DNA from: Candidatus Poriferisodalis sp.
GTDB taxonomy: Bacteria > Actinomycetota > Acidimicrobiia > Acidimicrobiales > Poriferisodalaceae
Direction: 5' to 3'
Assembly (NCBI RefSeq): GCF_965208485.1
Contig: NZ_OZ242344.1
Location: 648,067 to 712,066, forward strand
DNA length: 64,000 bases
The position numbers and the translations under genes are program-made. The notes under the pieces are model-generated. The model did not search any database and was not told the origin of the DNA. It worked only from the letters and a program-made list of their open reading frames with translations. Shown piece by piece: positions 9,421 through 48,199 of this stretch (its first letter is position 1; the number at the start of each line of letters is the position of its first letter).

Positions 9421-10521
9421 ATGGAATTGGGACTGTTCACCATGCCGAGCCACCCGCCCGAGCGCGACCTGCGCGAAGGCTGGGAGTGGGACCTGCAGGT
9501 CATCGAATGGGCTGATGAGTACGGATTCGCCGAGGCGTGGATCGGTGAGCACCATGCCGCTAAGTGGGAGCCTCATCCTGCGCCTGACCTGCTGACGCTG
9601 GAGGCGCTGCGGCGCACGGAGAACATCCGCATCGGCCCCGGCGGTTTCCTGATGCCTTACTACCATCCTGCTGAGCTGGCCAACCGCATCTCGCTTCTGG
9701 ACCACATCTCAGAGGGCCGGCTGAACTTCGGGGTTGCTGCCAGCGGTCTGCCCAGCGACTGGGAGATGTTCGGCGTGGACGGCATGGCCGGCGAGAACCG
9801 AGAGATGACCCAGGAGTCGGTCGAGTTCATCCTGAACCTCTGGACCCAAGAGCCCGGCTGGACCCACGAGGGCAAGCACTGGAAGGGCTCGGTGCCCCAC
9901 GGCATGCCCGATCTGGACCTCGTGCAGCATCTCAAGCCGTTGCAGCAGCCGCACCCGCCGATTGCCGTGGCCGGGCTGAACTCGCCGTCCCCGACGCTGG
10001 AGATGGCGGGCGAGAAGGGCTGGATCCCGCTCAGCCTGAACCTCAACCCGCAATATGTGAGCGGACACTGGGATTCCTACGAAGCCGGCGCACGGCGCGC
10101 CGGGCGGGAGATCAGCCGCAGCGACTGGCGCATGGTGCGCGAAGTCTTCGTGGCGCCCACCGACGAGGAGGCTTGGGAGCACTCCTACGGCGGGATGATG
10201 GGCCGGATGATGACCGAGTACTTCATTCCGCTGCTCGGCGCGTTCGATTTCCACCAGTTCCTCATCGACGAGCGCAACCCGCCCGCCGACGGCGTAGTCA
10301 CCGTCGACTACTGCGCCCGCAACAACTGGCTCGTGGGCTCACCCGAGACCGTGGCAGCGTCAATCGAGAAGATCCACGCGGATGTCGGCGGCTTCGGTCA
10401 CCTGCTGCTGTTCTGCTTCGACTACTCCGAGACGCCCGAAAGCGCCGAATCATGGCGACGCTCGATGGAGCTGCTCGCCCACGACGTCATGCCGCGCGTG
10501 GCGCACCTCACCGGGGACTGA
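9421..10521 (+). CDS. LLM-class flavin-dependent oxidoreductase/monooxygenase
   Basis: 366-aa ORF: MELGLFTMPSHPP...AWIGEHH...RLNFGVAASG... Confidence 0.85.
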   Translation: MELGLFTMPSHPPERDLREGWEWDLQVIEWADEYGFAEAWIGEHHAAKWEPHPAPDLLTLEALRRTENIRIGPGGFLMPYYHPAELANRISLLDHISEGRLNFGVAASGLPSDWEMFGVDGMAGENREMTQESVEFILNLWTQEPGWTHEGKHWKGSVPHGMPDLDLVQHLKPLQQPHPPIAVAGLNSPSPTLEMAGEKGWIPLSLNLNPQYVSGHWDSYEAGARRAGREISRSDWRMVREVFVAPTDEEAWEHSYGGMMGRMMTEYFIPLLGAFDFHQFLIDERNPPADGVVTVDYCARNNWLVGSPETVAASIEKIHADVGGFGHLLLFCFDYSETPESAESWRRSMELLAHDVMPRVAHLTGD

Positions 10522-10591
10522 ACCCGCGCGAACCCTGAGTCCAGCCTCGGCCCGCCGAGTCCGGCGACTGGGGCGAATACAGTTGCGCGCC

Positions 10592-11791
10592 ATGGTGTCG
10601 GCACCGCGAGCAGCAACCTCACCGGCACTTCGGACCGTGCGAGCTCAGGCCGAAGTGCTGGTCGAACTCGCCCGACACCGCATCTCCCAGTACTCCGGTA
10701 TCGGCGCGCGACGCGCAGCGCGACGGCCGCCGATCTGGCCTCCGGCCCCCGAACTTCCCAAGGGCGACCCCCGTCTCGGACTGCGGGACCGCTGGTACCT
10801 GCTGGGCGTGGCCGACCTCGTGGGCGCCCAGCCAGTGCCCACACGCCTCCTCGGCGAGGACTTGGTGGCGTGGCGCGATGGCGACGGCGCAGTGCGATTG
10901 ATGGCAGATCTGTGTCCGCACCGGGGCGCAAGGCTGTCAGTCGGCGATGTCGTGGGCGGACAGTTGCAGTGCGCGTACCACCACTGGCGATTCGACGGCG
11001 AGGGCCAGTGCACATCGGTGCCGTCCCAAGGCGGCGCCTGCTCGCTGGCCGAGCGCACCCGCATCAGCGTGAGCTATCCCGTCAGCGAGCAAGCCGGCTA
11101 TCTCTGGGCGTGGATCGGCGAGAGCCTGCCTGAGCCGCTCAAGCTTCCGGCTGAGTTCACTGGCGAGCAGTACTCGACCTTCCCCGAGACCGTGGAATGG
11201 GGCGCCAACTGGATGCTCGGGCTGGAAAACCTCGTGGACCTGATGCATGCGCCGTTTCTGCACGCGCGCTCGATCACGCTGAACGAGGGCGTCACGCACG
11301 ACCGGGTCGTCGTCGACGATCACGACGACGGGTTCGAGGTACGCCGCCGCGACCAAGCCGGCACCAACTTCGACTGGATCGACGTCCACACCGGGGCGCT
11401 GAGCTACGTGCGTTTGGACATCCCGCTGCCGCCCAGTGCCGGGCCGGGTCCGCCGCTGCGGATCCTGGGATTCCTGACACCGCGTGACAATGCCGCCACG
11501 CTGGTGCACTTCCCCCGTTTCCGTGCGGTGTCCGGCCGCGAGCGCCGAATCTGGCGGACGCTCTACCGGCTGCGCCTGCGCGGCACGCACCTGCACGTCC
11601 TGAATCAAGACAAGGAGATGCTCGAAGGCCTGCGCACCGTCGAGGAAGCCCGCCGCGACGAGCATCTGGCGCAGGCCGATCGCCCTGTGGTGCACTTGCG
11701 TCGCGCGCTCGAAGGCGACTTCGAGGCGCAGCGGCAGCGTTTCGGACTGGCAGCCCAGCCCGAGCCGGTGCAGCTGCTCGCCGCTGACTGA
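10592..11791 (+). CDS. Rieske [2Fe-2S] aromatic-ring-hydroxylating oxygenase (alpha-subunit/KshA-like)
   Basis: Rieske motif CPHRGARLSVGD...CAYHHWRFDGEGQC. Start uncertain: in-frame ATG at 10592 or GTG at 10655. The track extension back to 10382 overlaps the previous gene and is rejected. Confidence 0.85.
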   Translation: MVSAPRAATSPALRTVRAQAEVLVELARHRISQYSGIGARRAARRPPIWPPAPELPKGDPRLGLRDRWYLLGVADLVGAQPVPTRLLGEDLVAWRDGDGAVRLMADLCPHRGARLSVGDVVGGQLQCAYHHWRFDGEGQCTSVPSQGGACSLAERTRISVSYPVSEQAGYLWAWIGESLPEPLKLPAEFTGEQYSTFPETVEWGANWMLGLENLVDLMHAPFLHARSITLNEGVTHDRVVVDDHDDGFEVRRRDQAGTNFDWIDVHTGALSYVRLDIPLPPSAGPGPPLRILGFLTPRDNAATLVHFPRFRAVSGRERRIWRTLYRLRLRGTHLHVLNQDKEMLEGLRTVEEARRDEHLAQADRPVVHLRRALEGDFEAQRQRFGLAAQPEPVQLLAAD

Positions 11792-11871
11792 TTGCCCTGC
11801 GACCCGTCGAACAGCCCAACCGCCGCTCCGCCTCTTCACTCTCCGCCGTACTCGACCACAGGACGACACCG

Positions 11872-12405
11872 ATGAGCCAGACCGCCGCCCCATCCGAGAC
11901 ACCCAGCGCAGCACCAGCAGCCGACCTCGAGGAACGCATCGACTCGATGTGCGCCACAGCAGACAGCCGGCGTGAGGATTGGGACACGCTGGCGTTCCAG
12001 ACCAAGGCCGGTCCGCAGTATCGCCGCGCCCAGATCCGCTACATCGGCTCGGGCGGCACCGGCAATCACGAGGGTGACGAGCGGGCGCTGGCCGCCGAGC
12101 ACTTCACGTTCTCGAACATGCTGCTGCCGCCCGGTGCCGAGGGCCCCGAGCACACCCACCACGACGTCGAGGAGGCGTTCTTCGTGCTCGAGGGCGAACT
12201 CGAGGTCACCATCCACGACGGCGACGAAGCGGCCAGCCGGCTGCTCGGCTACCGCGACCTCATCAAGGTGCCCGCCGGCACCGCCCGCTCGATCCGAAAT
12301 GTCGGCGACACTGACGCCCTGTTCGTGGTGATGCTGGGCGCATCGAAGCCCCAGCTCCCCACCTATCCCCCACACTCCCCCATGGCGAGGATCACGCGGG
12401 ACTGA
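11872..12405 (+). CDS. Cupin-domain protein
   Basis: PGAEGPEHTHHDVEEAFFVLEGELEV...KVPAGTARSIRNVGD matches the two cupin motifs. Confidence 0.75.
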   Translation: MSQTAAPSETPSAAPAADLEERIDSMCATADSRREDWDTLAFQTKAGPQYRRAQIRYIGSGGTGNHEGDERALAAEHFTFSNMLLPPGAEGPEHTHHDVEEAFFVLEGELEVTIHDGDEAASRLLGYRDLIKVPAGTARSIRNVGDTDALFVVMLGASKPQLPTYPPHSPMARITRD

Positions 12406-35433: not shown

Positions 35434-35960
35434 CATTCCCGGTTTGGGAGACGGCGTTGGTGACAGGCTGAATGGTAGCCACCGACTGTCTCGATTTGGC
35501 TTGCATTCGGAAGAAACGATGGAGTTGACGAAACCTGCACAATTTCCTGCGGCAGACGGAGGGTCCGCTGTAGGCATGCGCCGGGGTCGGTTTCTTGGCC
35601 GATGGCCGGATTGAACTGCGGTTACCCCAAGCGGGGTTAAAGCTCCGCGTGCGTCAGGCGCGCTCCGTCAAGCCTTCTCCGAACTCGATTCGGACAACGG
35701 ACACGCCTGCTACCGATTCGACATCTCGCAAGGCTGAGCACAGCGCTTGATCCCGTGACACTGCCGACCGTGTGAACTCCAGCGTGTCGTGCCCGATGGT
35801 CGCGTCGCCGCAACCAGCCTCGTACAGGGCGTCAAGCGTGGACCAGTTGAGGAGGTCGGCACCGGCAGTCACCAGCACGAAGCGGAACGTCTCGCCCGGC
35901 TCGTCCATCTGAACGTCGCTCGCGCTCATGTCACCCCCGATCCGTTTGCGGTGCGCTGAT
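35434..35960. repeat. ~0.52-kb direct repeat, copy A (carries a 91-aa gene)
   Basis: Starts cattcccggtttgggagacggcg... and is colinear with 37825-38345. High similarity by eye, including the encoded protein. Confidence 0.75.
35654..35929 (-). CDS. Small hypothetical protein (possible antitoxin partner of the upstream HicA-like ORF)
   Basis: MSASDVQMDEPGETFRFVLVTAGADLL... Its ATG at 35929 overlaps the upstream ORF stop (ATGA). A paralog lies at 38021-38302. Confidence 0.5.
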   Translation of the reverse strand: MSASDVQMDEPGETFRFVLVTAGADLLNWSTLDALYEAGCGDATIGHDTLEFTRSAVSRDQALCSALRDVESVAGVSVVRIEFGEGLTERA

Positions 35961-36214: not shown

Positions 36215-37141
36215 TCAGTATTTTTCATTGAGTTTGACAGCAACGGCGTCGAGCGTTCGTCGCACTTCGGCCAGCACCTTCGATGGGTCGCTGTCAATAT
36301 CAACCGGGGCGTGAAGACGCAGTCGGCTTCCCCCGGGTACCTGCTCGAGGTCGAAGCGCCAGGTGTCCGCAGGCATGTCGAGCGATTCGATGGCGGCCCG
36401 AACCGCATCGGGCTTGGCCTTGAGATCGATCTCGTCGACGACACCCGGCCCGTTCTGCGTCTTGGTGCGACCGTAGCGATCGAAGTAGGCGATGTCGGGA
36501 GCCGCGTAGCGCCGTGACGTCGGCGTGAAGTCGGTGCCGATCGTGTAGGCCACCGGGAAGAGGCAGATCTGGGTCACGTGATCCGGCAGCTCCAGCAGCT
36601 CGGCGACCGCCGGTGCCTCGTTGAGGTACATCGTGGTCCACACCGTTCCCAGGCCTCGACTCCGCAGGGCGACCATGAAGCTCCAAGCCGACTGGATCAC
36701 CGAATCGAACAGTCCCGGCCGGCCGCTGCCGTCGTGGCGTCCGAGAATCGTGGGGATGACGAGCGCCGGCGTCCTGGCGATGTTCTCGCCCAGATGGCGG
36801 GCGCCAGCCATCAGCCGTTCGTTCTGGTGGCCGCTGCCTTCCAGCCGTTTGGCCGTCTCGATCACCCAATCGACTCCCGCCGACAGGTAGAGCTCGGCCA
36901 TCCGGTCCTTGGTCTGCTGATCCCTGATGATCATCCACCGGCGGCTGCCGTTGTTGCCTCCGGTGGGTGCCTGCTCGGCCACCTCGATGCAGTCGAGGAT
37001 GATCCGGTCATCGACCTCCCGATCGAAGTCGAGGCGTTGGCGTACGCCCCGAGTCGAACGCCACAATTCGAGCACTCGCCGTGGCGGTCCCTTGCCAATG
37101 GCTGCCGATATGAGCACGTTCGCATCAACCACCGCCCTCAT
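36215..37141 (-). CDS. Chimeric ORF: PIN-domain N-terminal ~30 aa fused in frame to a nitroreductase-family protein lacking its own N-terminus
   Basis: MRAVVDANVLISAAIGKGPPRRVLELW (PIN start) is followed by TRGVRQRLDFDREVDD...APTGGNNGSRRWMIIRD. The latter is colinear with the paralog at 43946-44848, at roughly 88-90% nt identity by eye. Confidence 0.7.
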   Translation of the reverse strand: MRAVVDANVLISAAIGKGPPRRVLELWRSTRGVRQRLDFDREVDDRIILDCIEVAEQAPTGGNNGSRRWMIIRDQQTKDRMAELYLSAGVDWVIETAKRLEGSGHQNERLMAGARHLGENIARTPALVIPTILGRHDGSGRPGLFDSVIQSAWSFMVALRSRGLGTVWTTMYLNEAPAVAELLELPDHVTQICLFPVAYTIGTDFTPTSRRYAAPDIAYFDRYGRTKTQNGPGVVDEIDLKAKPDAVRAAIESLDMPADTWRFDLEQVPGGSRLRLHAPVDIDSDPSKVLAEVRRTLDAVAVKLNEKY

Positions 37142-37824: not shown

Positions 37825-38345
37825 TCATTCCCGGTTTGGGAGACGGCGTGGGTGACGGGCTGAATGGCAGCCACCGGCGGTCTCGATTTGGGTTTGCATT
37901 TGGAAGAAACGATGGATTCGGTGAAACGCGCAGTGTTCCCTGCCGCACATGCCAGAACCGACATCGCGAGTCACTGGAGGCAGTATCTGGGCCGATGAGC
38001 CGGAATGGCCTCCGGCCACCTCAGGCGGGATTGGAACTGTGCGCGCGCCAGGCTCGCTCTGCCCAGCCTTCGCCCAACTCGATTCGCACTACGGGCACGC
38101 CTGCCACCGATTCGACGTCTCGCAGGGCTGAGCACAGGGCTTGGTCTCGTGAAGCCGCCGACCGCGTGAACTCCAGCGTGTCGTGCCCGATGGTCGCGTC
38201 GCCGCGACCGGCCTCGGAGAGGGCGTCAAGGATGGACCAGTCAAGGAGATCGGCCCCCGCAGTCACCAGCACGAAACAGAATGTCTCGCCTGCCCCGTCC
38301 AACTGAACGTCGCTTGCGCTCAGGTCACCCCGATCCGTCTGTGGT
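37825..38345. repeat. ~0.52-kb direct repeat, copy B
   Basis: Colinear with 35434-35960. Homology decays near 38345, just before the AT-rich palindrome. Confidence 0.75.
38021..38302 (-). CDS. Paralog of the 91-aa protein at 35654-35929 (orphan copy; may be decaying)
   Basis: MDGAGETFCFVLVTAGADLLDWSILDAL... The ATG position of copy A reads CTG here. It has a different C-terminal extension and no HicA-like ORF upstream. Confidence 0.35.
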   Translation of the reverse strand: MDGAGETFCFVLVTAGADLLDWSILDALSEAGRGDATIGHDTLEFTRSAASRDQALCSALRDVESVAGVPVVRIELGEGWAERAWRAHSSNPA

Positions 38346-38353
38346 TGTTGGCG

Positions 38354-38377
38354 TTTGATAATAATAGTATTATCAAA
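38354..38377. promoter_or_regulatory. Perfect AT-rich palindrome (TTTGATAATA-atag-TATTATCAAA) abutting the toxin start codon; candidate operator and -10 element
   Basis: 10-bp arms are exact reverse complements. TATTAT lies 5 nt before the GTG at 38379, leaving no room for an RBS. This suggests a leaderless mRNA. Confidence 0.5.
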
Positions 38378-38378
38378 C

Positions 38379-38798
38379 GTGTCACAGTGGTCGGTCGAGT
38401 TTCATCCTGCCTGCCGGCAGTGGGCGGAGGGACTCGAACAGGCCGACGCTGAGGCCTTGCTCGCTGCCATCCGCGTGCTGCGAGACCAGGGACCGACGCT
38501 GGGCCGTCCGCTGGTCGACACGCTCAAGAGCAGCCGACACAACAACATGAAGGAACTCCGCCCAGGCTCAACCGGACGAACTGAAATCCGAGTCTTGTTC
38601 GCCTTCGACCTCGAACGCAGGGCCATCCTGCTGGTCGGCGGCGACAAGGGCGACGATTGGGACCGTTGGTATGAATCGAACATCCCGATCGCCGATGATC
38701 GATTCGACGAACATCAAGCCAAGCTCGCCGAGAGGCGGCAGACGACACCACGCAGGACGGCACCGAGAAAGCAGACCGGCAGGAGGAAGCGACGATGA
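38379..38798 (+). CDS. Type II toxin, HigB/RelE-superfamily (Gp49-like)
   Basis: VSQWSVEFHPACRQWAEGL...LKSSRHNNMKELRPGSTGRTEIRVLFAFDLERRAILLVGGDKGDDW, the typical Gp49/HigB-like pattern. Confidence 0.75.
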   Translation: MSQWSVEFHPACRQWAEGLEQADAEALLAAIRVLRDQGPTLGRPLVDTLKSSRHNNMKELRPGSTGRTEIRVLFAFDLERRAILLVGGDKGDDWDRWYESNIPIADDRFDEHQAKLAERRQTTPRRTAPRKQTGRRKRR

Positions 38799-39088
38799 GT
38801 CTTGAACAATGGGAGCAGAAGGTCCTTCAAGCGCCAGGCGCCGACCAGCGCGTCAGCGAGATCGAGGACGAACTGCGATTGGCTGCTGGGTTGACCGCTC
38901 TGCGTGAGAGCGCCGGCTTGTCCCAGCGCGACCTCGCTGAGCGGATCGGCGTATCGCAACCCCGCATCGCCGCCATCGAGTGCTCGGACAACGTCACGAT
39001 CAGCGTCCTCCAGCGCTACGCCCGCGGAGTAGATGGCCGCCTCGAAGTGTCCGTAGTGCAAGATCAACGACGGACTCCTCTGCTCTGA
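38795..39088 (+). CDS. XRE-family HTH antitoxin (HigA-like)
   Basis: LRESAGLSQRDLAERIGVSQPRIAAIE. Its ATG overlaps the toxin stop (ATGA). Confidence 0.8.
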   Translation: MSLEQWEQKVLQAPGADQRVSEIEDELRLAAGLTALRESAGLSQRDLAERIGVSQPRIAAIECSDNVTISVLQRYARGVDGRLEVSVVQDQRRTPLL

Positions 39089-39274
39089 CACCTATAGGCC
39101 ACGCGGATTGGTCGCTGCGGGAACTAAGCCAGATCAACATCGGCACCTCACGTAGCCGGGCGAACTCCGACCCCGGGATGAGACCGCATCGGATACGCGT
39201 CCCCAATACGATCTGGCGAAGAGGGCTCGACCCGGTGGCCCGGGTCAAGCCACTTCTTGCCGTCCAAGGCCATC

Positions 39275-39682
39275 ATGAGCGACAGAGTTGCCCACCTACA
39301 GATCATCCAGGGCGTCATCAATCGTCTGAGCCAGAACTCATTCCTGCTCAAAGGCTGGGCCGTCGTCTTGGTGTCAGGTCTGTTCGCCTTGGCGGCGGGC
39401 AATTCCGAGATCCTGTTCGTCTATCTGGCCTACCTTCCTGCGATCGCCTTCTGGTGTCTCGATGCCTACTTCCTCCGGCAAGAACGTCTGTATCGCGCGC
39501 TGTACGACGAGATGCGCGAAGTCGATGAAGCCGACGTTGATTTCTCGATGGACACGCGATCCGTTGCAGACAAGGTTGCGCCCTGGTACAGGGTTGCAGT
39601 CTCACCGACGATCATCGCCTTTCACCTGACGCTGATAGGCGCTGTCGCTCTGGTCATGGCGATTATTCTCGGCCGGCAGTGA
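39275..39682 (+). CDS. Small membrane protein (3 predicted TM segments)
   Basis: MSDRVAHLQIIQGVINRLSQNSFLLKGWAVVLVSGLFALAAG...ILFVYLAYLPAIAFWCLDAYF...IIAFHLTLIGAVALVMAIIL. Its stop overlaps the next gene's GTG start (GTGA). Confidence 0.6.
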   Translation: MSDRVAHLQIIQGVINRLSQNSFLLKGWAVVLVSGLFALAAGNSEILFVYLAYLPAIAFWCLDAYFLRQERLYRALYDEMREVDEADVDFSMDTRSVADKVAPWYRVAVSPTIIAFHLTLIGAVALVMAIILGRQ

Positions 39683-40782
39683 GCAGACCGTTGCGGGCCG
39701 CGATGAAGCCGCCCGCGCCGACGGTCGTCTTCGACAGCTATTGGACGTTCGCGACGCGCAGACAGGAGATCTTCCACCAGAGAGTGGAGGGTGCTCCGCC
39801 TCCGTGGACAGACGACCCTGTTCTGTCGGAGTTTCGGTTCACCAATGCGTACCGTGCAGCCGACCGGGTGAGCCAGTACCTGATCCGACACGTGGCGTAC
39901 CAAGGAGATCAATCGGCCGAGGAGGTCGTGTTCCGGGTGCTGCTGTTCAAGCTGTTCAACCGAATCTCGACCTGGGAACTTCTCGAGTCCGAGATCGGGG
40001 AGATCACCGCTGCCGAGTTCGACGTCGAACGATACGACTCGGTCATGACGAGAGCCATCGGGACAGGACAGCGCCTCTACTCCGCGGCGTACATCATGCC
40101 GCCCGCCTCCCGAGGTGGCGGCCGGAAACACTCGAGCCACCTACAGCTGATCAAGGGCATGCTTGACGCCAAGCTGCCCGATCAACTCGTCGGTTCCGGC
40201 TCGATGGCCGAGGCCTTCGGGCTGCTCCGCGGGCTTCGGGGGGTTGGCACATTCCTGGCGTACCAGCTCGTCACCGACCTCAACTACACCTCTGCGCTGG
40301 ACTACTCAGAGATGGAGTTCGTGATGGCAGGCCCAGGGGCGCGGAGCGGGATCGAGAAATGCTTCTCGGACCTCGGTGACTATTCCGTCGAGGACGTCAT
40401 TCGTTGGACGGCCGACCGCCAGCTAGACGAGATGCGAGAGCGCGAGTTGGATTTCATAGACCTCTGGGGTCGGCCGCTCCAACTCATCGACTGTCAGAAC
40501 CTGTTCTGCGAGGTGGACAAGTACGCAAGGGTCATGCACCCCGAGGTTGCGAGCCGGGCCGGTCGCACAAGAATCAAACAGCGGTTTCAGGCCGACCCTT
40601 CGCCTCTCGAGGTGTGGTTCCCGCCGAAGTGGGGGCTCAATGAGCATCTACCGGACGCGCCCTGCAGCCCCGCGACGGCAGCGTCAGGCCGATCCGATCA
40701 TGACGGCCCCAGCATTGCCCACGCATCATGCGGGCAAGCGGAGCTGTTCTGCTCCGAGCCCGACGTCTCAGCACTTTCCTAA
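39679..40782 (+). CDS. Homolog of the 'nucleotide kinase domain / putative DNA base hypermodification' family (helical domain linked to phage 5-hmdU hypermodification enzymes)
   Basis: SYWTFATRRQEIFHQR...PWTDDPVLSEFRFTNAYRAADRVSQYLI..., FLAYQLVTDLNY, LIDCQNLFCEVDKYARV, GRTRIKQRF. These are blocks I recall from that family; not verified by search. Confidence 0.6.
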   Translation: MSRPLRAAMKPPAPTVVFDSYWTFATRRQEIFHQRVEGAPPPWTDDPVLSEFRFTNAYRAADRVSQYLIRHVAYQGDQSAEEVVFRVLLFKLFNRISTWELLESEIGEITAAEFDVERYDSVMTRAIGTGQRLYSAAYIMPPASRGGGRKHSSHLQLIKGMLDAKLPDQLVGSGSMAEAFGLLRGLRGVGTFLAYQLVTDLNYTSALDYSEMEFVMAGPGARSGIEKCFSDLGDYSVEDVIRWTADRQLDEMRERELDFIDLWGRPLQLIDCQNLFCEVDKYARVMHPEVASRAGRTRIKQRFQADPSPLEVWFPPKWGLNEHLPDAPCSPATAASGRSDHDGPSIAHASCGQAELFCSEPDVSALS

Positions 40783-40922
40783 CTCGACTCGGATCGACGG
40801 CCCAGTGGCGGCCCTAGCCGCAACGCACCCCGTCGGACCATACCGAACGACCAGCGAACACAGACCTGTCACACCCCCTCGCTAGCGTCGGAACCATCCG
40901 ATCTAGCTCCAGGAGGCGGGCC

Positions 40923-41393
40923 GTGTCTGACGAACGCCATATCTTCATCAGCCACATCCACGAAGACGACGAGCACGTCCAAAAGCTCAAAAACCTGCTC
41001 GCCACGAAGGGCATGGACGTCAAGAACGGATCCATCACGGAGGACAAATTCAACGACGCTCAGAACGAGCAGTACATCAAGAACGAGATCCTCAAGCCCC
41101 GCATCGACTGGGCGAGTTGTCTGGTGGTCCTTGTCTCAGAAGACACCAAGGACAGCGACTGGGTCAACTGGGAGATCGAGTACGCCCAAGAAACAGACAC
41201 ACGGATCGTCGCTGTCTACGAACACAGTGAGGCCGGAGCCGAACTGCCCGAGGCAGCAAAGGACTACGCCGACGCAGTGGTCGGGTGGACAGGAGACCGG
41301 ATCGTCGATGCGATCAACGGCGAGGACTGCTGGCAGGAGCCCGGTGGCCAGCCAAGGCCCCAGCAGCCTCTCAAGCGAATCCCGAAGTGCTGA
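40923..41393 (+). CDS. TIR-like domain protein (DUF1863/ThsB-like)
   Basis: HIFISHIHEDDEHVQKLKNLL...CLVVLVSEDTKDSDWVNWEIEYA...RIVAVY. AGGAGG RBS at 40911-40916, 6 nt before the GTG. Confidence 0.75.
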   Translation: MSDERHIFISHIHEDDEHVQKLKNLLATKGMDVKNGSITEDKFNDAQNEQYIKNEILKPRIDWASCLVVLVSEDTKDSDWVNWEIEYAQETDTRIVAVYEHSEAGAELPEAAKDYADAVVGWTGDRIVDAINGEDCWQEPGGQPRPQQPLKRIPKC

Positions 41394-41396
41394 TTC

Positions 41397-41984
41397 TTGA
41401 CTCGGCTGTTCTCGTACGTCGTCACTAGGGACTACGGCTTTGCGCCGAACCCCTTCGGTGGTTTCTGCACCGTTGCCTGCTGCAAACCAATCGTGAGAAG
41501 CGTCGCGCAGGTCGGCGACTACATCGTCGGCACGGCAACAACCGCCAAGTTCCCACCTGGCCAGGTCGTCTATGTGATGAGGGTCAGCGAGGTACTCAGC
41601 TTCGACCAGTTCTGGAACGATCCTCGCTTCGAGCCGAAGCGCCCGATCCTGAACGCAACAAGGAAGCGCCAGTACGGCGACAACATCTACTGCACCAACT
41701 CGCAAGGGGAGTTTGTCCAGATGGACTCTCACCACAGCCTTGCCGGTGGTGCAACCAACACCTTCAATCTCAACAAAGACACCGGCGTCGACCGAGTGCT
41801 CGTCTCTGACCGCTATACGTACTGGGGTGGCTCAGGACCCGACTTGCCCGCAGAACTCCACTACACCCTCGCCAGACGCGGACACCGCTCAAAGTTCACG
41901 GACGACCAAGTCGCGGCGTTCGTCAGCTGGGCGGAGCCGCTCCTCGGACAAGGCTTCTGCGGGCGGCCATTCAGCTGGGCCTAG
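41397..41984 (+). CDS. Nmad2-like (nucleotide-modification-associated domain 2) protein
   Basis: MTRLFSYVVTRDYGFAPNPFGGFCTVACCKPIVRSVAQVGDYIVGT matches my recollection of the Nmad2 N-terminal signature. Starts 3 nt after the TIR stop. Confidence 0.6.
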   Translation: MTRLFSYVVTRDYGFAPNPFGGFCTVACCKPIVRSVAQVGDYIVGTATTAKFPPGQVVYVMRVSEVLSFDQFWNDPRFEPKRPILNATRKRQYGDNIYCTNSQGEFVQMDSHHSLAGGATNTFNLNKDTGVDRVLVSDRYTYWGGSGPDLPAELHYTLARRGHRSKFTDDQVAAFVSWAEPLLGQGFCGRPFSWA

Positions 41985-42015
41985 CTCGGCCGCGTCAACA
42001 AACCCCTAGGCCGAC

Positions 42016-42768
42016 CTAATCCGTCGGAGCTGCGAGTTCCTGCGCGACCGGCGTCACCGAGTCTGGCGCTATCGAACCCGACTGCTCGGTGGGAGCCGGC
42101 ACATCGCCATCGCTGTCACCACCATTCGAAAGGGCGGAGTTCACAGCGAAACCAATCAGAGCTGCGATGACGGCGGCCGCGATCGTGCCTACGACCCAAG
42201 CCGAGGTTCGAGCAATGCGTTCGAGGCTCTCGACCCGGGTTGCCAGCGCTTGCGGCGACGCAACATCGCCCTGAAGATTCTCGACGTCCGCGCTCGTGAT
42301 CGAGGTTCGGCCCGGCTTGTCGTAGACGTCCCCAGTCGCGGCGTCCAAGGAGCTCAGCCAAAGCAGGAACAAGCGATCGCCCCGTGCCACGACCACTGGC
42401 GTCGGCCCCGCATTGAAGACGGAGAACAGAATCCGGCCGTGGTACCCCGGGTCCACATGGAAGCCCGAGACGTTCACCAGCCCTCGCTGCTTCCACTTGA
42501 ACCTGGCCGAGATGAGACCAAGCGCATCGGCCGGGATCCGTACCGTTTCCTCGGTCAGCAGGTTCGCGAAATGGCCCGGCGGGATCCGCACCTGTTCGCC
42601 TTCAGCCAGCGTCCGTTTCGTCTTCGACTCGCTGTCGGTCACGTACACCTCGTGACCCAAGCGGAGTTCGTATGCACAGTTGACGACTAGCTCTGGCTTA
42701 TAGGGCTCGACGATCTGCTCGTCAGGGAGCCGGGCGCGCAGCGTTTCGGTCCTCCAGAAGCCGCTCAA
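42016..42768 (-). CDS. dCTP-deaminase/dUTPase-superfamily protein with a C-terminal TM anchor
   Basis: SGFWRTETL...NCAYELRLGHEVYV...GLVNVSGFHVDPGYHGRILFSVFNAG...RLFLLW, then a coiled segment and the TM helix WVVGTIAAAVIAALIGFAV. The TTG start at 42768 overlaps the upstream stop (TTGA). Start is uncertain. Confidence 0.7.
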   Translation of the reverse strand: MSGFWRTETLRARLPDEQIVEPYKPELVVNCAYELRLGHEVYVTDSESKTKRTLAEGEQVRIPPGHFANLLTEETVRIPADALGLISARFKWKQRGLVNVSGFHVDPGYHGRILFSVFNAGPTPVVVARGDRLFLLWLSSLDAATGDVYDKPGRTSITSADVENLQGDVASPQALATRVESLERIARTSAWVVGTIAAAVIAALIGFAVNSALSNGGDSDGDVPAPTEQSGSIAPDSVTPVAQELAAPTD

Positions 42769-43406
42769 GCTCTTGCCTCGGGGCTCCCCGAGGCACTCGC
42801 GCCCTCCGATTGGGCACTGGCCTCGAGTGCGGTCGGCGGGAGCCTCTCGTTGCAGACCGTCGCGAGCTTCACGCCGAACACCGCAACGTCCGCCAATCGC
42901 TCGGGACAGAAGTCTTCCCACGTACCCGCATCGATCGCATCGACTAGCAGGCCCGCCAACTTCGTGACATGGAAGGTGTAGTGGCGCAGTTGCTCAACTT
43001 TGGGGAGCCCGAAGACGTCTGGATGAAACTGTCGGTCATGTGCGAGCTGCCCGACTTGGAAATCGGCCCAAGTGCACGCGGCATCGAGGGCGTCTGCCCC
43101 CGCAAGCTCGGAAGTGCCGGACGCCGAGCCGTGCTGAAGCAGGCTGGCCGACTCCACGTCTCGAATCCGTGTTGCATATGCATCGCTGAGCGAGACGCCT
43201 GCGGCGGCAGCGAGCTGCGCCGCCGTTTCTCGGAGCTGCTCCGCGGCATGGACAACCTGCTGAGTTGTCGCCGGCTCGTTGTGCTCAACGTGCTCGCAAT
43301 ATGAGGCGCACGCGGCCGCTGATCGAACGACCGCACGGACAGCGCGCTCAAGCACATCGGGTGTGAGCCCTTCCCGGGCGCTCGTCTCCGTGCCGTCCAT
43401 CGTCAT
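42765..43406 (-). CDS. Hypothetical all-helical protein, weakly MazG-like (NTP pyrophosphohydrolase fold?)
   Basis: 213 aa. Segments ...GVSLSDAYATRIRDVE... and ...ERLADVAVFGVKLATVCNERL recall MazG helices. No clear EExxE motif seen. Confidence 0.45.
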   Translation of the reverse strand: MTMDGTETSAREGLTPDVLERAVRAVVRSAAACASYCEHVEHNEPATTQQVVHAAEQLRETAAQLAAAAGVSLSDAYATRIRDVESASLLQHGSASGTSELAGADALDAACTWADFQVGQLAHDRQFHPDVFGLPKVEQLRHYTFHVTKLAGLLVDAIDAGTWEDFCPERLADVAVFGVKLATVCNERLPPTALEASAQSEGASASGSPEARA

Positions 43407-43945: not shown

Positions 43946-44848
43946 CTAGCTCTTGAGCCGCCGTGCCAGCGTGTCCAGCGTGCGCCGCACTTCGGCTAGC
44001 GCCGTCGATGGATCGTCGCCGGGATCGACCGGGGCGTGGAGACGCAGCCGGCTGCCCCCGGGGACCTGCTCGAGGTCGAATCGCCAGCGGTCGGAGGGCA
44101 CGTCGAGCGATTCGATGACGGGCCCGACCGCGTCGGGCCTGGCCTTCAGATCGATCTCATCGACGACGCCCGGCCCGCCGCGCGTCTTGGTGCGGCCGTA
44201 GCGATCGAAGTAGGCGATATCGGCGGCCGGGTAGCGCCGTGACGTCGGCGTGAAGTCGGTGCCGATCGTGTAGGCCACCGGGAAGAGGCAGACCTGGGTC
44301 ACATGGCCCGGCAGTTCCAGCAGTTCGGCGACGGCCGGCGCCTCGTTCAGAAACATCGTGGTCCAGACGGTTCCCAGGCCTCGGCTTCGGAGCGCGACCA
44401 TGAAGCTCCACGCCGATTGGATCACCGAATCGAACAGACCCGGCCGTCCGCTGCCGTCGTGGCGCCCGAGAATCGTGGGAATAACCAGCGCCGGAGTCCT
44501 CGCGATGTTCTCGCCGAGATGGCGGGCGCCTGCCATCAACCGTTCGTTCTGGTGGCCGCTGCCCTCCAGCCGCTTCGCCGTCTCGATGACCCAGTCGACT
44601 CCGGCCGACAGGTACAGCTCGGCCATCCGGTCCTTGGTCTGCTGATCCCTGATGATCATCCAGCGACGGCTGCCGTTGTTGCCTCCGGTGGGCGCCTGCT
44701 CGGCCACATCGATGCAGTCGAGAATGATTTGGTCATCGACCTCCCGGTCGAAGTCGAGGCGCTGGCGCACGCCGCGGGTCGTCATCAGCGCGTGATCGAC
44801 GACCGCCTGATAGTCGGGCGTGCCCGGTGCGAACGCCGACTCAGCCAT
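43946..44848 (-). CDS. Nitroreductase-family protein with a ~90-aa C-terminal extension
   Basis: MAESAFAPG...TRGVRQRLDFDREVDDQIILDCIDVAEQAPTGGNNGSRRWMIIRD... Full-length paralog of 36215-37141. Start set at the ATG at 44848. Confidence 0.8.
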   Translation of the reverse strand: MAESAFAPGTPDYQAVVDHALMTTRGVRQRLDFDREVDDQIILDCIDVAEQAPTGGNNGSRRWMIIRDQQTKDRMAELYLSAGVDWVIETAKRLEGSGHQNERLMAGARHLGENIARTPALVIPTILGRHDGSGRPGLFDSVIQSAWSFMVALRSRGLGTVWTTMFLNEAPAVAELLELPGHVTQVCLFPVAYTIGTDFTPTSRRYPAADIAYFDRYGRTKTRGGPGVVDEIDLKARPDAVGPVIESLDVPSDRWRFDLEQVPGGSRLRLHAPVDPGDDPSTALAEVRRTLDTLARRLKS

Positions 44849-45076: not shown

Positions 45077-46370
45077 TTGGCAACTACGCTTGAAAATGGG
45101 GACGGCTACTTGGAACGCCTCGCTGACCCGCTGATAGCGGAACTGCTCGCTGCGTTGCCGGCGGTCTCGCTGGTCGGCCCGCGAGCAGCCGGCAAGACAA
45201 CCACCGCCGCCCGGCACGCCAGCAGCATCATTCACTTGGACCGTCCCGCCGAGGCTGACGTGGTTGCTGCCGATCCCGATGCATCGCTCGACGGGCTCGC
45301 AGAGCCGATCCTGCTGGACGAATGGCAGAAGGTGCCCGAGGGCTCGGCGCCGTAAAGCGCGCATGCGACCGTGATCGCCGGCCGGGACGCTTCATCCTGA
45401 CCGGATCGGTGCGAGCTGAGACCGAGCACCGGACATGGCCGGGCACCGGCAGAGTCACCCGCGTGGAGATGTTCCCCTTGACCGTCGGCGAACTGTCGGG
45501 TTCGACAGCCCCGACGCTGGTGGACCGCATCGCCGAGGGCGATCCCGCCCTGACAGGGGGGACCCGCTGGGCTGGCGACGATGCCAGCGGCCCCGCGGGT
45601 GCGGGCGCCGCCGAGAATCTCCGGGACTATGTGCGACTGGCTCTGCAGGGAGGGTTCCCGCAAGCGGCGCTCGGCATGCCCAAGCGCGCTCGGCGACGGT
45701 GGCTCGACACCTACGCCGCGGAAGTCGTCGGCCGCGACGCAGTTCTCGCGGGCAACGCTGTCGACCGGAGCCGGCTGAGGCGCTACTTCGCTGCCTACGC
45801 CCATCAGTGCGCTCGAATCACCGATGACACCCTTCTCTACACCGCTGCGGGCGTCGACCGCCGCAGCGCACATGCATATCTGGATCTGCTCAAACGCATC
45901 TACGTGGTCAGCGAACTGCCCGCGTGGTCGTCGAACCGCACGAAGCGGCTCGTCAAGCGACCGAAGCGATTCCTCGTGGATTCCTCGCTGTTTGCCACGG
46001 CTACCGGTATCACCGAAGCGGAGGTGATGCGCGATGCCGACCTGTTGGGCCGTCTCGTCGAGACGCTCGTCGTGGCGCAGCTTTGAGCACAGGCCACCGT
46101 CAGCGAGCGCCGCTACGCGCTGCATCACTTGCGTCAGCACAACGGTCGGCACGAAGTCGATGTCGTCATCGAACTCGACTCCGGGCACATCATCGGCATC
46201 GAAGTCAAGGCTGCGGCGGCGGTTTCCCGCGATGACGCCCGGCACCTCGCGTGGCTGCGAGACGAGGAAGGCGATCGGTTCCTCGCAGGCGTCGTGCTGC
46301 ACTCCGGCACGGGCATCGTGTCGCTCGCGGACCGCCTGTGGGCGGCGCTCATCGGCAGCCTGTGGCCTAG
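45077..46370 (+). pseudogene. AAA+ ATPase (AAA_14/DUF4143 family), disrupted
   Basis: Walker A GPRAAGKTT lies in one frame (45077-45355). The rest lies in another frame (45322-46086). An in-frame TGA at 46084-46086 is followed by a colinear continuation (HLRQHNGRHEVDVVIELD...). An intact paralog lies at 61282-62454. The 3' limit is approximate. Confidence 0.75.
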
Positions 46371-46588
46371 ATGCTCGCCGCTCGTTATCCCAACCCCGCA
46401 GCGGATTGGAGTTGGGCCGGGAAGCAGCGTTGACGAGCAGCAGGGAGTGTTGTCACCGGTCATTGCGTGGAGTTGCCTCGCAGGCTCCCCGACATGGCCA
46501 CTGGGGGGCTGCCGAACGACGGCTACCGCACACCCGGCATCTAGCAGCCACCCGAGGCCGGCACCCATTTCCTGCTCAGCGATGCGTC

Positions 46589-48199
46589 TCAGCCAAGCGC
46601 TGGTGCGGGGCTCTCCTCGCGGACACCGGTCATCAACAAGCCGACGCGGTCCGTGGTGGCCTCAGATCGGGGCAGATTGCACATGGCACGCCCTTCGAAC
46701 AGCACCACGACCCGATCCGACATCTGCAGTGCTTCGTCGAGATCCTCGGTGATGAGCAGGATTGCCGCTCCCGCTGCACGCTTGGAAAGCAGCCGCTCAT
46801 GCACATACTCGGCCGCCCCGATGTCGATGCCGCGCGTGGGCTGTGCCACGATCAGCACCTCGGCAGCGGCCGAGAATTCCCGCGCGATCACCACCTTCTG
46901 GATGTTGCCGCCCGAGAGGTGCGAAGTCTGCGTGGTGATCGAGGGCGTCTTCACGGTGAAGCGCCGTACGAGCTCCTGGCAGCGCTCGGCGATGACACCG
47001 AATTGCAGGAGTCCCGCCCGCACATAGGGACGGTGCTCGTACTCGACGAGCATGAGGTTTTCTGAGACATTCAGCTCGCCCACCGCGCCGTGGCGCATGC
47101 GCTCTTCGGGCACGAAGGCCACGCCGCGCCGACGCACCGACTTTGGCGTCGGCGTCGCGATGGGCTGACCGGCGACCTCCACCCTGCCGGCTTCTATGGG
47201 CCGCAGTCCAAAGATCGCCTCGGCCAATTCCCGCTGCCCGTTGCCCGACACGCCGGCGATGCCGACGATCTCGCCGCCGGTGACCCGCACCGAGAAGTCG
47301 TCGAGGGCGATGTTGCCCCGATCGCCGCGCACGCTCAGCCCGTCGACGACCAAGCGATCCTCGCCGGTGTCCTGGTCGGGCACGTCACGCACCAGTCGCA
47401 CCTCGCGTCCCACCATCATCGACGCCAAGCCTTCCCGTGAGGTCTCTGCCGGCGTTGTTCGACCGACGACTCGACCGTCGCGCAGCACCGTGATCTGGTC
47501 CGAGATGTCCATGACCTCGGCCAGCTTGTGCGAGATGAAGATGAGTCCGCGTCCCTCGTCGGTCAACGAGCGCAGGGTCGCGAACAGATCCTCGACCTCG
47601 GGCGGCGTGAGCACCGCGGTCGGCTCGTCCAGCACCAGCAGCAGTGCCTCTCGGTAGAGCGCCTTGAGGATCTCCGCCCGTTGACGCTCCCCCACAGCCA
47701 GCTGCCAGATATAGGCGTCGGGATCGATGACGAGGCCATGGCGCTCGGAGACCTCCATGAGCCGTTCGCGTACCGGTGCCATGTCGGCCAGCCCACGCCT
47801 GCCGTGCAGGCCCAACGCGACGTTCTCGGCCACGGTCAGCGTCGGGACCAGCATGAAATGCTGGTGGATCATGCCGATCCCATGGCTGATCGCCTCGGCC
47901 GGCGAGCCGATCTCCACCTGGGAGCCGTTGATCTTGACCTCGCCCTCGTCCGGCCGGTAGAGGCCGTAGAGGATCTTCACCAGCGTGCTCTTGCCGGCGC
48001 CGTTCTCGCCCAGCAGCGTATGGACCTGTCCCCCCAGCACGGTGAGGTCGACGTCCTCATTGGCGATCACACCGGGGAAGCGCTTGGTGATGCCGGTCAT
48101 CTCCAGCATCGGCGACGCCGGGGCGCGGCCCTGCAGCGCATCCGCAGATGCACCCAGCGCCGCGGCTCCGGCTGCCGTGATGTCTGTTGGTTCGGCCAT
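46589..48199 (-). CDS. ABC transporter ATP-binding protein, duplicated ATPase (CUT2/BMP-type importer)
   Basis: Two nucleotide-binding domains: GENGAGKST..., LVLDEPT..., then GVSGNGQREL... Start set at the ATG at 48199 (MAEPTD). Confidence 0.9.
   Translation of the reverse strand: MAEPTDITAAGAAALGASADALQGRAPASPMLEMTGITKRFPGVIANEDVDLTVLGGQVHTLLGENGAGKSTLVKILYGLYRPDEGEVKINGSQVEIGSPAEAISHGIGMIHQHFMLVPTLTVAENVALGLHGRRGLADMAPVRERLMEVSERHGLVIDPDAYIWQLAVGERQRAEILKALYREALLLVLDEPTAVLTPPEVEDLFATLRSLTDEGRGLIFISHKLAEVMDISDQITVLRDGRVVGRTTPAETSREGLASMMVGREVRLVRDVPDQDTGEDRLVVDGLSVRGDRGNIALDDFSVRVTGGEIVGIAGVSGNGQRELAEAIFGLRPIEAGRVEVAGQPIATPTPKSVRRRGVAFVPEERMRHGAVGELNVSENLMLVEYEHRPYVRAGLLQFGVIAERCQELVRRFTVKTPSITTQTSHLSGGNIQKVVIAREFSAAAEVLIVAQPTRGIDIGAAEYVHERLLSKRAAGAAILLITEDLDEALQMSDRVVVLFEGRAMCNLPRSEATTDRVGLLMTGVREESPAPALG

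Follow-up and report, generated by a model that had tools for sequence, protein, structure and literature searches.

A probable anti-phage locus of the DS-4 family in Candidatus Poriferisodalis, with a TIR–Nmad2 core and predicted membrane partners

What is encoded by a compact block of genes in which a small membrane protein, a putative DNA base hypermodification protein, a TIR protein and an Nmad2 protein face a convergent gene pair? The question is raised by a 64,000-nucleotide stretch of Candidatus Poriferisodalis sp. (contig NZ_OZ242344.1, positions 648,067 to 712,066), hereafter the window, in which six open reading frames (ORFs), labelled g1 to g6, lie at ~39.2–43.4 kb. Protein identities of 91–94% place the source, a member of the Acidimicrobiia, near other Ca. 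Poriferisodalis. An earlier note, made from the sequence alone, had read the block as a candidate undescribed nucleotide-targeting system. We read the block as a probable DS-4-family locus for anti-phage defence, intact and gained by horizontal transfer, whose TIR signalling would act through a membrane effector with three transmembrane (TM) helices. Its assignment to a family of defence systems can be held with good confidence from homology, and the specific mechanistic chain proposed below is tentative. By sequence, the block is not categorically new, as the genes of its core have homologues in a system known to protect Escherichia coli from phage.

That system, DS-4 (working id NTTI; E. coli GCF_003333785.1, NZ_QOYB01000018.1:32107-36002), comes from the DefensePredictor study (DeWeirdt et al., Science 2026; PMC13092281), which lists it as validated against phage in E. 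coli and flags it as replicated. Its 3' half, HMUDK_hel–TIR–Nmad2 (DS-4C, DS-4D and DS-4E), corresponds to g2–g3–g4 with gene order and strand conserved, at BLASTP identities of 27% (E 3e-34), 32% (E 9e-30) and 42% (E 9e-47), respectively, and the TIR protein DS-4D bears a Cys-ended C-terminal tail as in g3. The two loci differ in their remaining genes. DS-4 begins with a thymidylate-synthase-like gene (DS-4A) and a deoxynucleoside monophosphate (dNMP) kinase gene (DS-4B), neither of which the window has, and it is without the M50A membrane protein (g1), the membrane protein of DCD/dUTPase fold (g5) and g6, all of which the window has. Judged by this comparison, the thymidylate-synthase-like and dNMP kinase genes of DS-4 appear to be exchanged here for M50A and the convergent g6/g5 pair. 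The claim that the combination is undescribed therefore fails, since g2–g3–g4 are DS-4C–D–E in order and g1 belongs to a PADLOC candidate, PDC-M50A. The DefensePredictor study also contains predicted, unvalidated systems with aGPT-Pplase, MazG, MazG-C, dUTPase, NMAD and uracil-DNA glycosylase (UDG) (PMC13092281, Fig. 6F/S12), and credits Burroughs et al. 2015 (NAR 43:10633) with an earlier defensive prediction of the domain set. Models are lacking in PADLOC v2 for HMUDK_hel, Nmad2 and MazG_C, as they are for the UDG-like protein, SLOG2, g5 and g6.

The family assignments of the three core proteins, as first proposed from the translations, were borne out by profile searches. The first, g2 (39679..40782, + strand), is an HMUDK_hel protein that stands alone ('putative DNA base hypermodification protein') and matches Pfam PF18723 at 5e-107 over profile positions 2–280 of 281; this is its sole Pfam domain, and it has no P-loop kinase domain. 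It has more than 8000 homologues, 52–67% identical across phyla, some of which carry the JGI label aGPT-Pplase clade 1. HMUDK_hel is fused to MazG_C in single ORFs of ~610–700 aa in four related loci (L046, L048, L075 and L083, at about 9800-11900 in each), which can be taken as Rosetta-stone evidence of joint action. The protein g4 (41397..41984, +) matches Pfam PF18753 (Nmad2) at 1e-62 and is the obligate partner 3' of the TIR gene. Its homologues form ~1550 clusters, all stand-alone, with C24, C29, H112 and H113 as invariant Nmad2 residues. Nmad2 of the g4 type is present on 17 plasmids, and a tblastn search of 50,697 phage genomes (INPHARED) gave no match. PDB sequence and profile searches returned nothing significant for g2 or g4.

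Between them lies g3 (40923..41393, +), a ThsB-type TIR protein (ThsB_TIR, 1e-25; PADLOC ThsB PDLC00418, 2e-61) with a catalytic-type Glu. It is 32% identical to a verified ThsB of type VIII Thoeris and falls in the cluster of type IV/VII/VIII/'3TM' Thoeris TIRs defined by Yirmiya et al., and its match to ThcB4, the type III Thoeris family, reaches only E 0.035. Conservation of the segment W83-E84-I85-E86 across Nmad2-linked TIRs is at least 91%, and the catalytic-type E84, present in g3, is kept in 98% of 55 such proteins. Across 54 TIRs of the related loci, g3 and DS-4D, the TIR fold is followed by a shared extension of ~25 residues (g3 residues ~131–156) with an invariant Cys at, or at most three residues from, the C-terminus, usually as the last residue; W122, A130, G133 and G142 are also invariant. 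TIRs of the M50B type do not have the Cys-ended extension. This conserved tail suggests a tail-mediated link to Nmad2, which might take the form of a metal site, conjugation or lipidation.

How often these genes are found together was assessed in a census of 160 loci from many phyla, obtained by searches with HMUDK_hel (g2) and, reversed, with Nmad2. For the HMUDK_hel set, 80 genome loci were fetched from Acidobacteriota, Planctomycetota, Chloroflexota, Cyanobacteria, Proteobacteria and Actinomycetota and all ORFs were clustered, and the counts refer to 83 loci besides the window; the Nmad2 set consists of 80 metagenome loci. Ten of the 83 HMUDK_hel loci contain a TIR–Nmad2 pair, always in that order, and 7 of these 10 also have a DCD-like gene. 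By a rough estimate from family size, ~5e-4 Nmad2 genes would be expected by chance in the 83 loci. In the Nmad2 set, a TIR gene lies directly upstream of Nmad2 in 74 of 80 loci (the remainder are truncated contigs) and MazG_C directly downstream in 55, a UDG-superfamily gene then follows in 30, 31 loci encode SLOG cluster2 proteins that have a second TIR as fusion partner or as paired neighbour, and HMUDK_hel occurs in 16. When at least 4 kb was available on both sides (18 loci), the counts are 18 for TIR, 17 for MazG_C, 15 for SLOG cluster2 and 7 for HMUDK_hel. Most loci of the Nmad2 set yielded a neighbourhood of TIR, Nmad2, MazG_C and UDG genes, with or without TIR/SLOG cluster2 and HMUDK_hel. 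The window shares with it the TIR–Nmad2 unit and the HMUDK_hel family, but differs in having no MazG_C, UDG-family or SLOG cluster2 gene and in having M50A and g6/g5.

Individual loci link the gene families further. M50A, TIR, Nmad2, HMUDK_hel and DCD follow one another in a single co-directional array in a member of the Dehalococcoidia (L065), and DCD, HMUDK_hel, ThyA, TIR and Nmad2 form another such array, with overlapping genes, in L061. Seven families (kinase, HMUDK_hel, ThyA, DCD, Nmad2, TIR and M50A) occur together in L032. The combination of HMUDK_hel, TIR and Nmad2 without ThyA or kinase is also found outside the window, for example in L080 and L001. A RefSeq-annotated Cupriavidus plasmid carries the TIR–Nmad2 neighbourhood array inside a Thoeris/CBASS island, and type I restriction–modification, Thoeris and a CBASS effector adjoin related loci. 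Given this recurrence of the gene families in distant phyla, the six genes are best seen as one recurrent modular neighbourhood and not as a chance cluster, in line with the earlier idea of a single nucleotide-centred system of defence type.

The census also brought out the dominant setting of HMUDK_hel. In ~60 of the 83 genomes, from many phyla, it is the fifth gene of a strongly conserved operon (for example L015 6140-11000; L021 8402-9241) that encodes, in order, an acyl-carrier-protein-like (ACP-like) protein of 98 aa without a Pfam match, an XRE helix-turn-helix (HTH) protein, a CapP-like M78 peptidase, a 279-aa protein without a Pfam match and HMUDK_hel. Located 3' of HMUDK_hel are a MazG+MazG_C or ThyA-like gene and genes for a thymidylate-kinase-like protein, a phosphopantetheinyl transferase (PPTase; ACPS), a papain-like peptidase and a g5-like protein. 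The M78 peptidase matches PADLOC CapP at 3e-10. This operon has the look of a separate inducible system, large and uncharacterised.

HMUDK_hel and Nmad2 were reportedly defined from base-hypermodification contexts by Iyer et al. in 2013. Their Pfam names point to such contexts, and related loci hold ThyA-like, kinase, MazG, DCD-fold, ACP-like, PPTase and radical-SAM genes, all of which would fit a cellular module for DNA or nucleotide hypermodification, a self-marking epigenetic system in which the TIR-like protein acts on nucleotides as an N-glycosidase or deoxyribosyltransferase and not as an NADase. We regard this explanation, also raised in the earlier note, as very improbable. Although g2 resembles the helical DNA-recognition domain of the 5-hmdU DNA kinase of phage thymidine hypermodification (5-HMUDK, aGPT-Pplase; Lee et al. 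2018, PMC5889632), it is cellular, has no P-loop kinase domain and is found amid TIR proteins, regulators and membrane proteins, and the window contains no kinase gene, hydroxymethylase or ThyA-like gene of a hypermodification pathway. Furthermore, g3 falls in the ThsB signalling clade, Nmad2 of the g4 clade is absent from the phage genomes searched, and the wider HMUDK_hel operon has stress-inducible regulators of the CapH/CapP type and lies in defence islands. DS-4 itself confers protection from phage on a naive E. coli host (PMC13092281).

The gene that opens the block adds a membrane component. g1 (39275..39682, +) encodes a small protein with three TM helices, a predicted membrane effector of the PDC-M50A family, which it matches nearly end to end (PADLOC PDLC04686, 3e-48, profile positions 1–131 of 134); it also matches phrog_19896 at 4e-37. 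No Pfam match was found, none to DUF2270, SLATT or Macro at E<0.1, and PDB sequence and profile searches gave nothing significant. The ORF tool places the start at a TTG at 39257, but the PADLOC profile begins at residue 7, in agreement with the ATG at 39275. M50A is a family of 4074 representatives at 50% identity, and in 7 of 9 prophage contigs its gene directly adjoins a TIR gene in a free-standing unit of two genes with no HMUDK_hel or Nmad2 nearby. It adjoins a TIR of the Nmad2-linked type in three more lineages (L032, L065 and L098). A metagenomic protein of 378 aa (P0362) consists of an N-terminal SLOG cluster2 domain (1.7e-15) fused to a complete M50A 3-TM module at residues 247–376, and so connects the M50A effector with the SLOG proteins that occur alongside TIR–Nmad2. 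The position of M50A beside TIR genes, together with this fusion, is the pattern expected of a signal-controlled effector module, and the fusion argues that M50A is an effector module and not itself the sensor.

Two groups of known or predicted systems are close to this arrangement. PDC-M50 (PADLOC-DB v2) pairs M50A with the M50B TIR, and the window resembles it in having a full-length M50A and a TIR gene in the same operon. However, g3 is not of the M50B subfamily (3e-12 only, against 2e-61 for ThsB PDLC00418), HMUDK_hel stands between M50A and the TIR, and canonical M50A–TIR pairs are without Nmad2 and HMUDK_hel and their TIRs are without the Cys tail. Yirmiya et al. 2025 (bioRxiv 10.64898/2025.12.03.692087) describe Thoeris types V–XI and 29 putative effector classes, among them an unverified '3TM' class; no Nmad, MazG, UDG, HMUDK or kinase terms occur in the text and the parts of the supplement consulted. 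PDC-M50 is probably their putative '3TM' type, for which TIR sequences alone are given; g3 is 25–32% identical to the TIRs listed there with '3TM' effectors. Among Thoeris systems more generally (types I–XI), the likeness lies in a ThsB-type TIR with a catalytic-type Glu and a small multi-TM protein in the same operon, g1 recalling type V (3-TM DUF2270 effector) and type II, and in the pairing of TIR–Nmad2 with SLOG-domain proteins in related loci, alongside the SLOG2–M50A fusion. In contrast, this TIR has as its obligate partner Nmad2, a protein not known from Thoeris systems, g1 matches none of DUF2270, SLATT and Macro, and a signal molecule, like a ligand pocket in M50A, is hypothetical here.

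At the other end of the block, g5 (42016..42768, − strand) has the trimeric dUTPase/DCD beta-barrel fold (Pfam DCD, 1e-14), as the earlier note had proposed, and its TIGR02274 match (8e-18, 64.7 bits) falls under the cutoff of 92.8. The start is assigned to the TTG at 42768, at which the homologues begin (M-x-F-W), although the ORF is open to 42921. We rejected an active dCTP deaminase because the residues Ser111, Arg115 and Glu138, which we take to be the catalytic residues of E. coli Dcd, are replaced in g5 by Phe, Gln and Ser in both pairwise and multiple alignment. The last position is Ser, Ala or Arg in the ten g5 homologues displayed from an alignment of 32 sequences, and g5 has no match to the PADLOC dCTP-deaminase models. 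The suggested depletion of dCTP by a deaminase is therefore unsupported. A standard dUTPase, the other candidate considered, needs five motifs: g5 keeps the motif-3 Asp and an 'SVxN' strand (FSVFNAG, resembling ISVWNRG of dUTPase), but the Ser of motif 2 is not kept and motif 5 is missing, its place being taken by a coiled coil and a TM helix, after which comes a low-complexity tail. The C-terminal coiled coil and TM anchor are present in all ten aligned homologues, from several phyla. A defensive dCTP deaminase (Tal et al. 2022) and housekeeping Dcd/Dut proteins thus share the fold, and g5 differs from them in its replaced catalytic residues, its missing motif 5 and its added membrane anchor. 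From these features g5 resembles rather a dUTPase fold that is cut short at the C-terminus and anchored in the membrane, and it reads as a nucleotide-binding, membrane-tethered module; with the 3-TM protein g1, it accounts for the two membrane-associated components that had been expected. A g5 homologue is found in 31 of 84 HMUDK_hel loci with the window included (30 of the 83 others), and an attractive but wrong annotation, dCTP deaminase, is hereby corrected for a widespread protein family.

The partner of g5, g6 (42765..43406, −), is an all-alpha orphan protein, translationally coupled upstream of g5, and no family was found for it in Pfam, NCBIfam or PADLOC. Its homologues form ~108 clusters with the invariant motifs CEHxEHNE, HDxxFHPDV and RLxDxxxFGxK, and it adjoins a DCD-like gene in four other loci (L001, L108, L173 and L174). 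MazG or MazG_C, suggested at the outset, could not be confirmed, with no Pfam match and an hhalign probability of 0.3% against MazG_C. PDB sequence and profile searches returned nothing significant for g6; a sub-threshold profile match was to DCTPP1/RS21-C6 (E 0.3–0.7), and together with the acidic motifs this makes a divergent MazG-like pyrophosphatase possible. The g6 protein and the membrane-anchored dUTPase/DCD-fold protein would, from their distribution, be a recurrent accessory pair of the DS-4 family.

All six tightly packed ORFs reported at first are present and intact, being full length against their own families with the invariant residues kept. Operon-like coupling is likewise visible in the sequence: the g1 stop and the g2 start share GTGA at 39679-39682, a strong ribosome-binding site (AGGAGG, 40911..40916, +) lies 6 nt 5' of the GTG start of g3, three nucleotides (ttc) separate the g3 stop from the TTG start of g4, and the g6 stop and the g5 start share TTGA at 42765-42768. 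A promoter and terminator scan of 38.9–43.7 kb gave nothing above shuffled expectation. The GC content is lower in the block (62.2%) than in the window (66.7%), and lower again in g3 (58.4%) and g1 (57.4%), so that the reported dip is real, although 'mid-50s vs 68-70%' overstated it.

A mobile unit of 3153 bp (39129..42280), made up of g1–g4 and the 3' end of g5, is shared at 92% DNA identity (blastn) with a locus in Ca. Poriferisodalis OZ242342 (L001). There it lies 3' of a phage-type integrase, between GmrSD and an MmeI-type methyltransferase (N6_Mtase/MmeI_Mtase) gene, with g1–g4 at 89–94% protein identity, no disruptions and the 4-nt g1/g2 overlap kept. Of a g5 of the window type, L001 has only a 3' remnant (10341-10601, −; 83% aa identity), and a different g6–DCD cassette (62% and 52% identical) follows at 10936-12332 (+) in the opposite orientation; the cassette has been replaced in L001. 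In the closest relative among metagenome-assembled genomes (L004), M50A is frameshifted (616-1074), the TIR–Nmad2–g5–g6 part is absent, and the sequence 3' of HMUDK_hel (2260 onward) is related to the nitroreductase region of the window. The cassette swap in L001 and the losses in L004 indicate that modules are exchanged and lost on short time scales.

The surroundings in the window agree with the earlier description of a mosaic island with a toxin–antitoxin module. Directly upstream of g1, at 38355-39088, a Gp49/HigB-like toxin gene (PF05973, 1e-18) overlaps an XRE-HTH antitoxin gene by 4 nt; the antitoxin weakly matches a CapH-like regulator hidden Markov model (HMM) at 4e-8, which is probably generic XRE similarity. 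Nitroreductase paralogues at 36248-36547 and 43973-44272, a direct duplication with 86% identity over 300 nt and 7725 bp apart, bracket the toxin–antitoxin pair and the defence block. A second direct duplication (35434-35904 and 37826-38298; 83–91% identical) has its copies ~2.39 kb apart. The AAA_14/DUF4143 ATPase gene at 45077-46752 is spread over three ORFs that overlap and lie in different frames, and is probably a frameshifted pseudogene.

With such a mosaic region, the block could also consist of independent modules that happen to lie side by side in a defence island, namely an orphaned PDC-M50A without its own TIR, a fragment of the DS-4 core and a separate module of g6 and the dUTPase-fold membrane protein, each of which acts or fails alone. 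The free-standing units of M50A and M50B-type TIR in prophage contigs would fit, as would the movement of g6–DCD as a cassette in L001 and its occurrence without TIR–Nmad2 in L173 and L174. We consider this unlikely: the g1/g2 overlap is kept in L001, M50A stands beside the Nmad2-type TIR in L032, L065 and L098, the DCD-like gene accompanies 7 of the 10 TIR–Nmad2 pairs in HMUDK_hel loci, and L061 and L065 are single co-directional arrays.

The absence of the thymidylate synthase, kinase, MazG_C, UDG and SLOG2 genes means that the block is either a streamlined membrane-effector variant, which we prefer, or an incomplete remnant. As a remnant, it would be a decaying, non-functional part of a fuller DS-4-type system whose chemistry cannot run without the thymidylate-synthase-like, kinase and MazG_C/UDG proteins. 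No ThyA-like, TMPK-like, MazG_C, UDG or SLOG2 gene is present in the 64-kb window, in L004 M50A is frameshifted and the whole part 3' of HMUDK_hel is gone, and the neighbouring AAA_14/DUF4143 gene is broken. Decay is nevertheless quite unlikely in view of the six full-length ORFs with their invariant residues and intact coupling signals, the 92% DNA and 89–94% protein identity of g1–g4 to L001 without disruptions, which fits purifying selection, and the presence of HMUDK_hel–TIR–Nmad2 without ThyA or kinase in L080 and L001 too.

For the preferred reading, an intact DS-4-family locus with a membrane effector, we tentatively propose the following chain. On infection, Nmad2 and/or HMUDK_hel would detect an abnormal state of pyrimidine deoxynucleotides or DNA; Nmad2 has a putative PUA/ASCH-like fold of the kind that reads or hydrolyses modified bases, and HMUDK_hel is, by analogy, the DNA-base-recognition domain of phage 5-hmdU kinases. 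The TIR protein, restrained until then via its Cys-ended tail and Nmad2, would turn NAD+ into an ADP-ribose-derived signal or deplete NAD+. The 3-TM M50A protein might then respond by breaching the membrane and aborting the infection. As a second sensor or effector arm, g6 and g5 could bind or hydrolyse nucleotides of the dUTP/dCTP type at the membrane, with no deamination of dCTP.

Several observations weigh against this reading, beginning with its mechanistic part. The AlphaFold2 models of g2 and g4 (predicted local distance difference test score of 79 for both) have as top Foldseek matches HhH-GPD glycosylases (E 0.6 or worse) and ASCH/EVE/YTH (PUA-like) proteins (weak, E 0.07), respectively, and neither the HMUDK_hel nor the Nmad2 fold assignment is significant. 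The sensor and killer roles are ones that we infer from sequence, and no mechanism is published for DS-4 (PMC13092281). In the parts of that study consulted, the effect of DS-4 on lambda, whose DNA is unmodified, is weak, with a −log efficiency of plating (EOP) of 0.93 (~8.5-fold lower EOP) and smaller plaques (Table S7, PMC13092281). HMMs of the ThyA-like (c10) and TMPK-like (c13) clusters found nothing in the 64-kb window at E<=1e-2, and there is no MazG_C, UDG or SLOG2 gene in it, though these are found in most Nmad2 loci; given the absent genes, the window copy may be incomplete. Lastly, M50A occurs in 4 of the 83 HMUDK_hel loci other than the window, one copy being frameshifted, and in 1 of the 80 Nmad2 loci, and its usual partner is the M50B TIR subfamily and not a TIR of the g3 type.

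Among validated defence systems, DS-4 is one of few made up of 'DNA hypermodification' domains, and the locus described here provides handles on its family. These include the invariant TIR–Nmad2 unit with its conserved Cys-ended tail, the interchangeable partner modules (thymidylate synthase and kinase; MazG_C and UDG; SLOG2–TIR; M50A; the membrane-anchored dead dUTPase fold with g6), the HMUDK_hel–MazG_C and SLOG2–M50A Rosetta-stone fusions and the CapH/CapP-type regulators. As far as we found, the membrane-anchored dead dUTPase fold, the TIR Cys tail and both kinds of fusion are undescribed as family-wide features. A broader and rather doubtful conjecture is that the DS-4 family is a new class of TIR immunity, with pyrimidine deoxynucleotide chemistry as its trigger or weapon in place of the classical Thoeris pair: Nmad2 would control the TIR via the Cys tail, HMUDK_hel would read or alter uracil-type bases in replicating DNA, and the dead membrane-anchored dUTPase fold (g5 with g6) would serve as a sensor of the nucleotide pool. 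The membrane-effector variant suggests that a simple pore-like protein can read the TIR output, which would make the signal experimentally tractable. If the broader conjecture is true, the nucleotide-synthesis arm (thymidylate synthase and kinase) would be exchangeable for membrane effectors (M50A and g5), and this would reveal the modular logic of the family.

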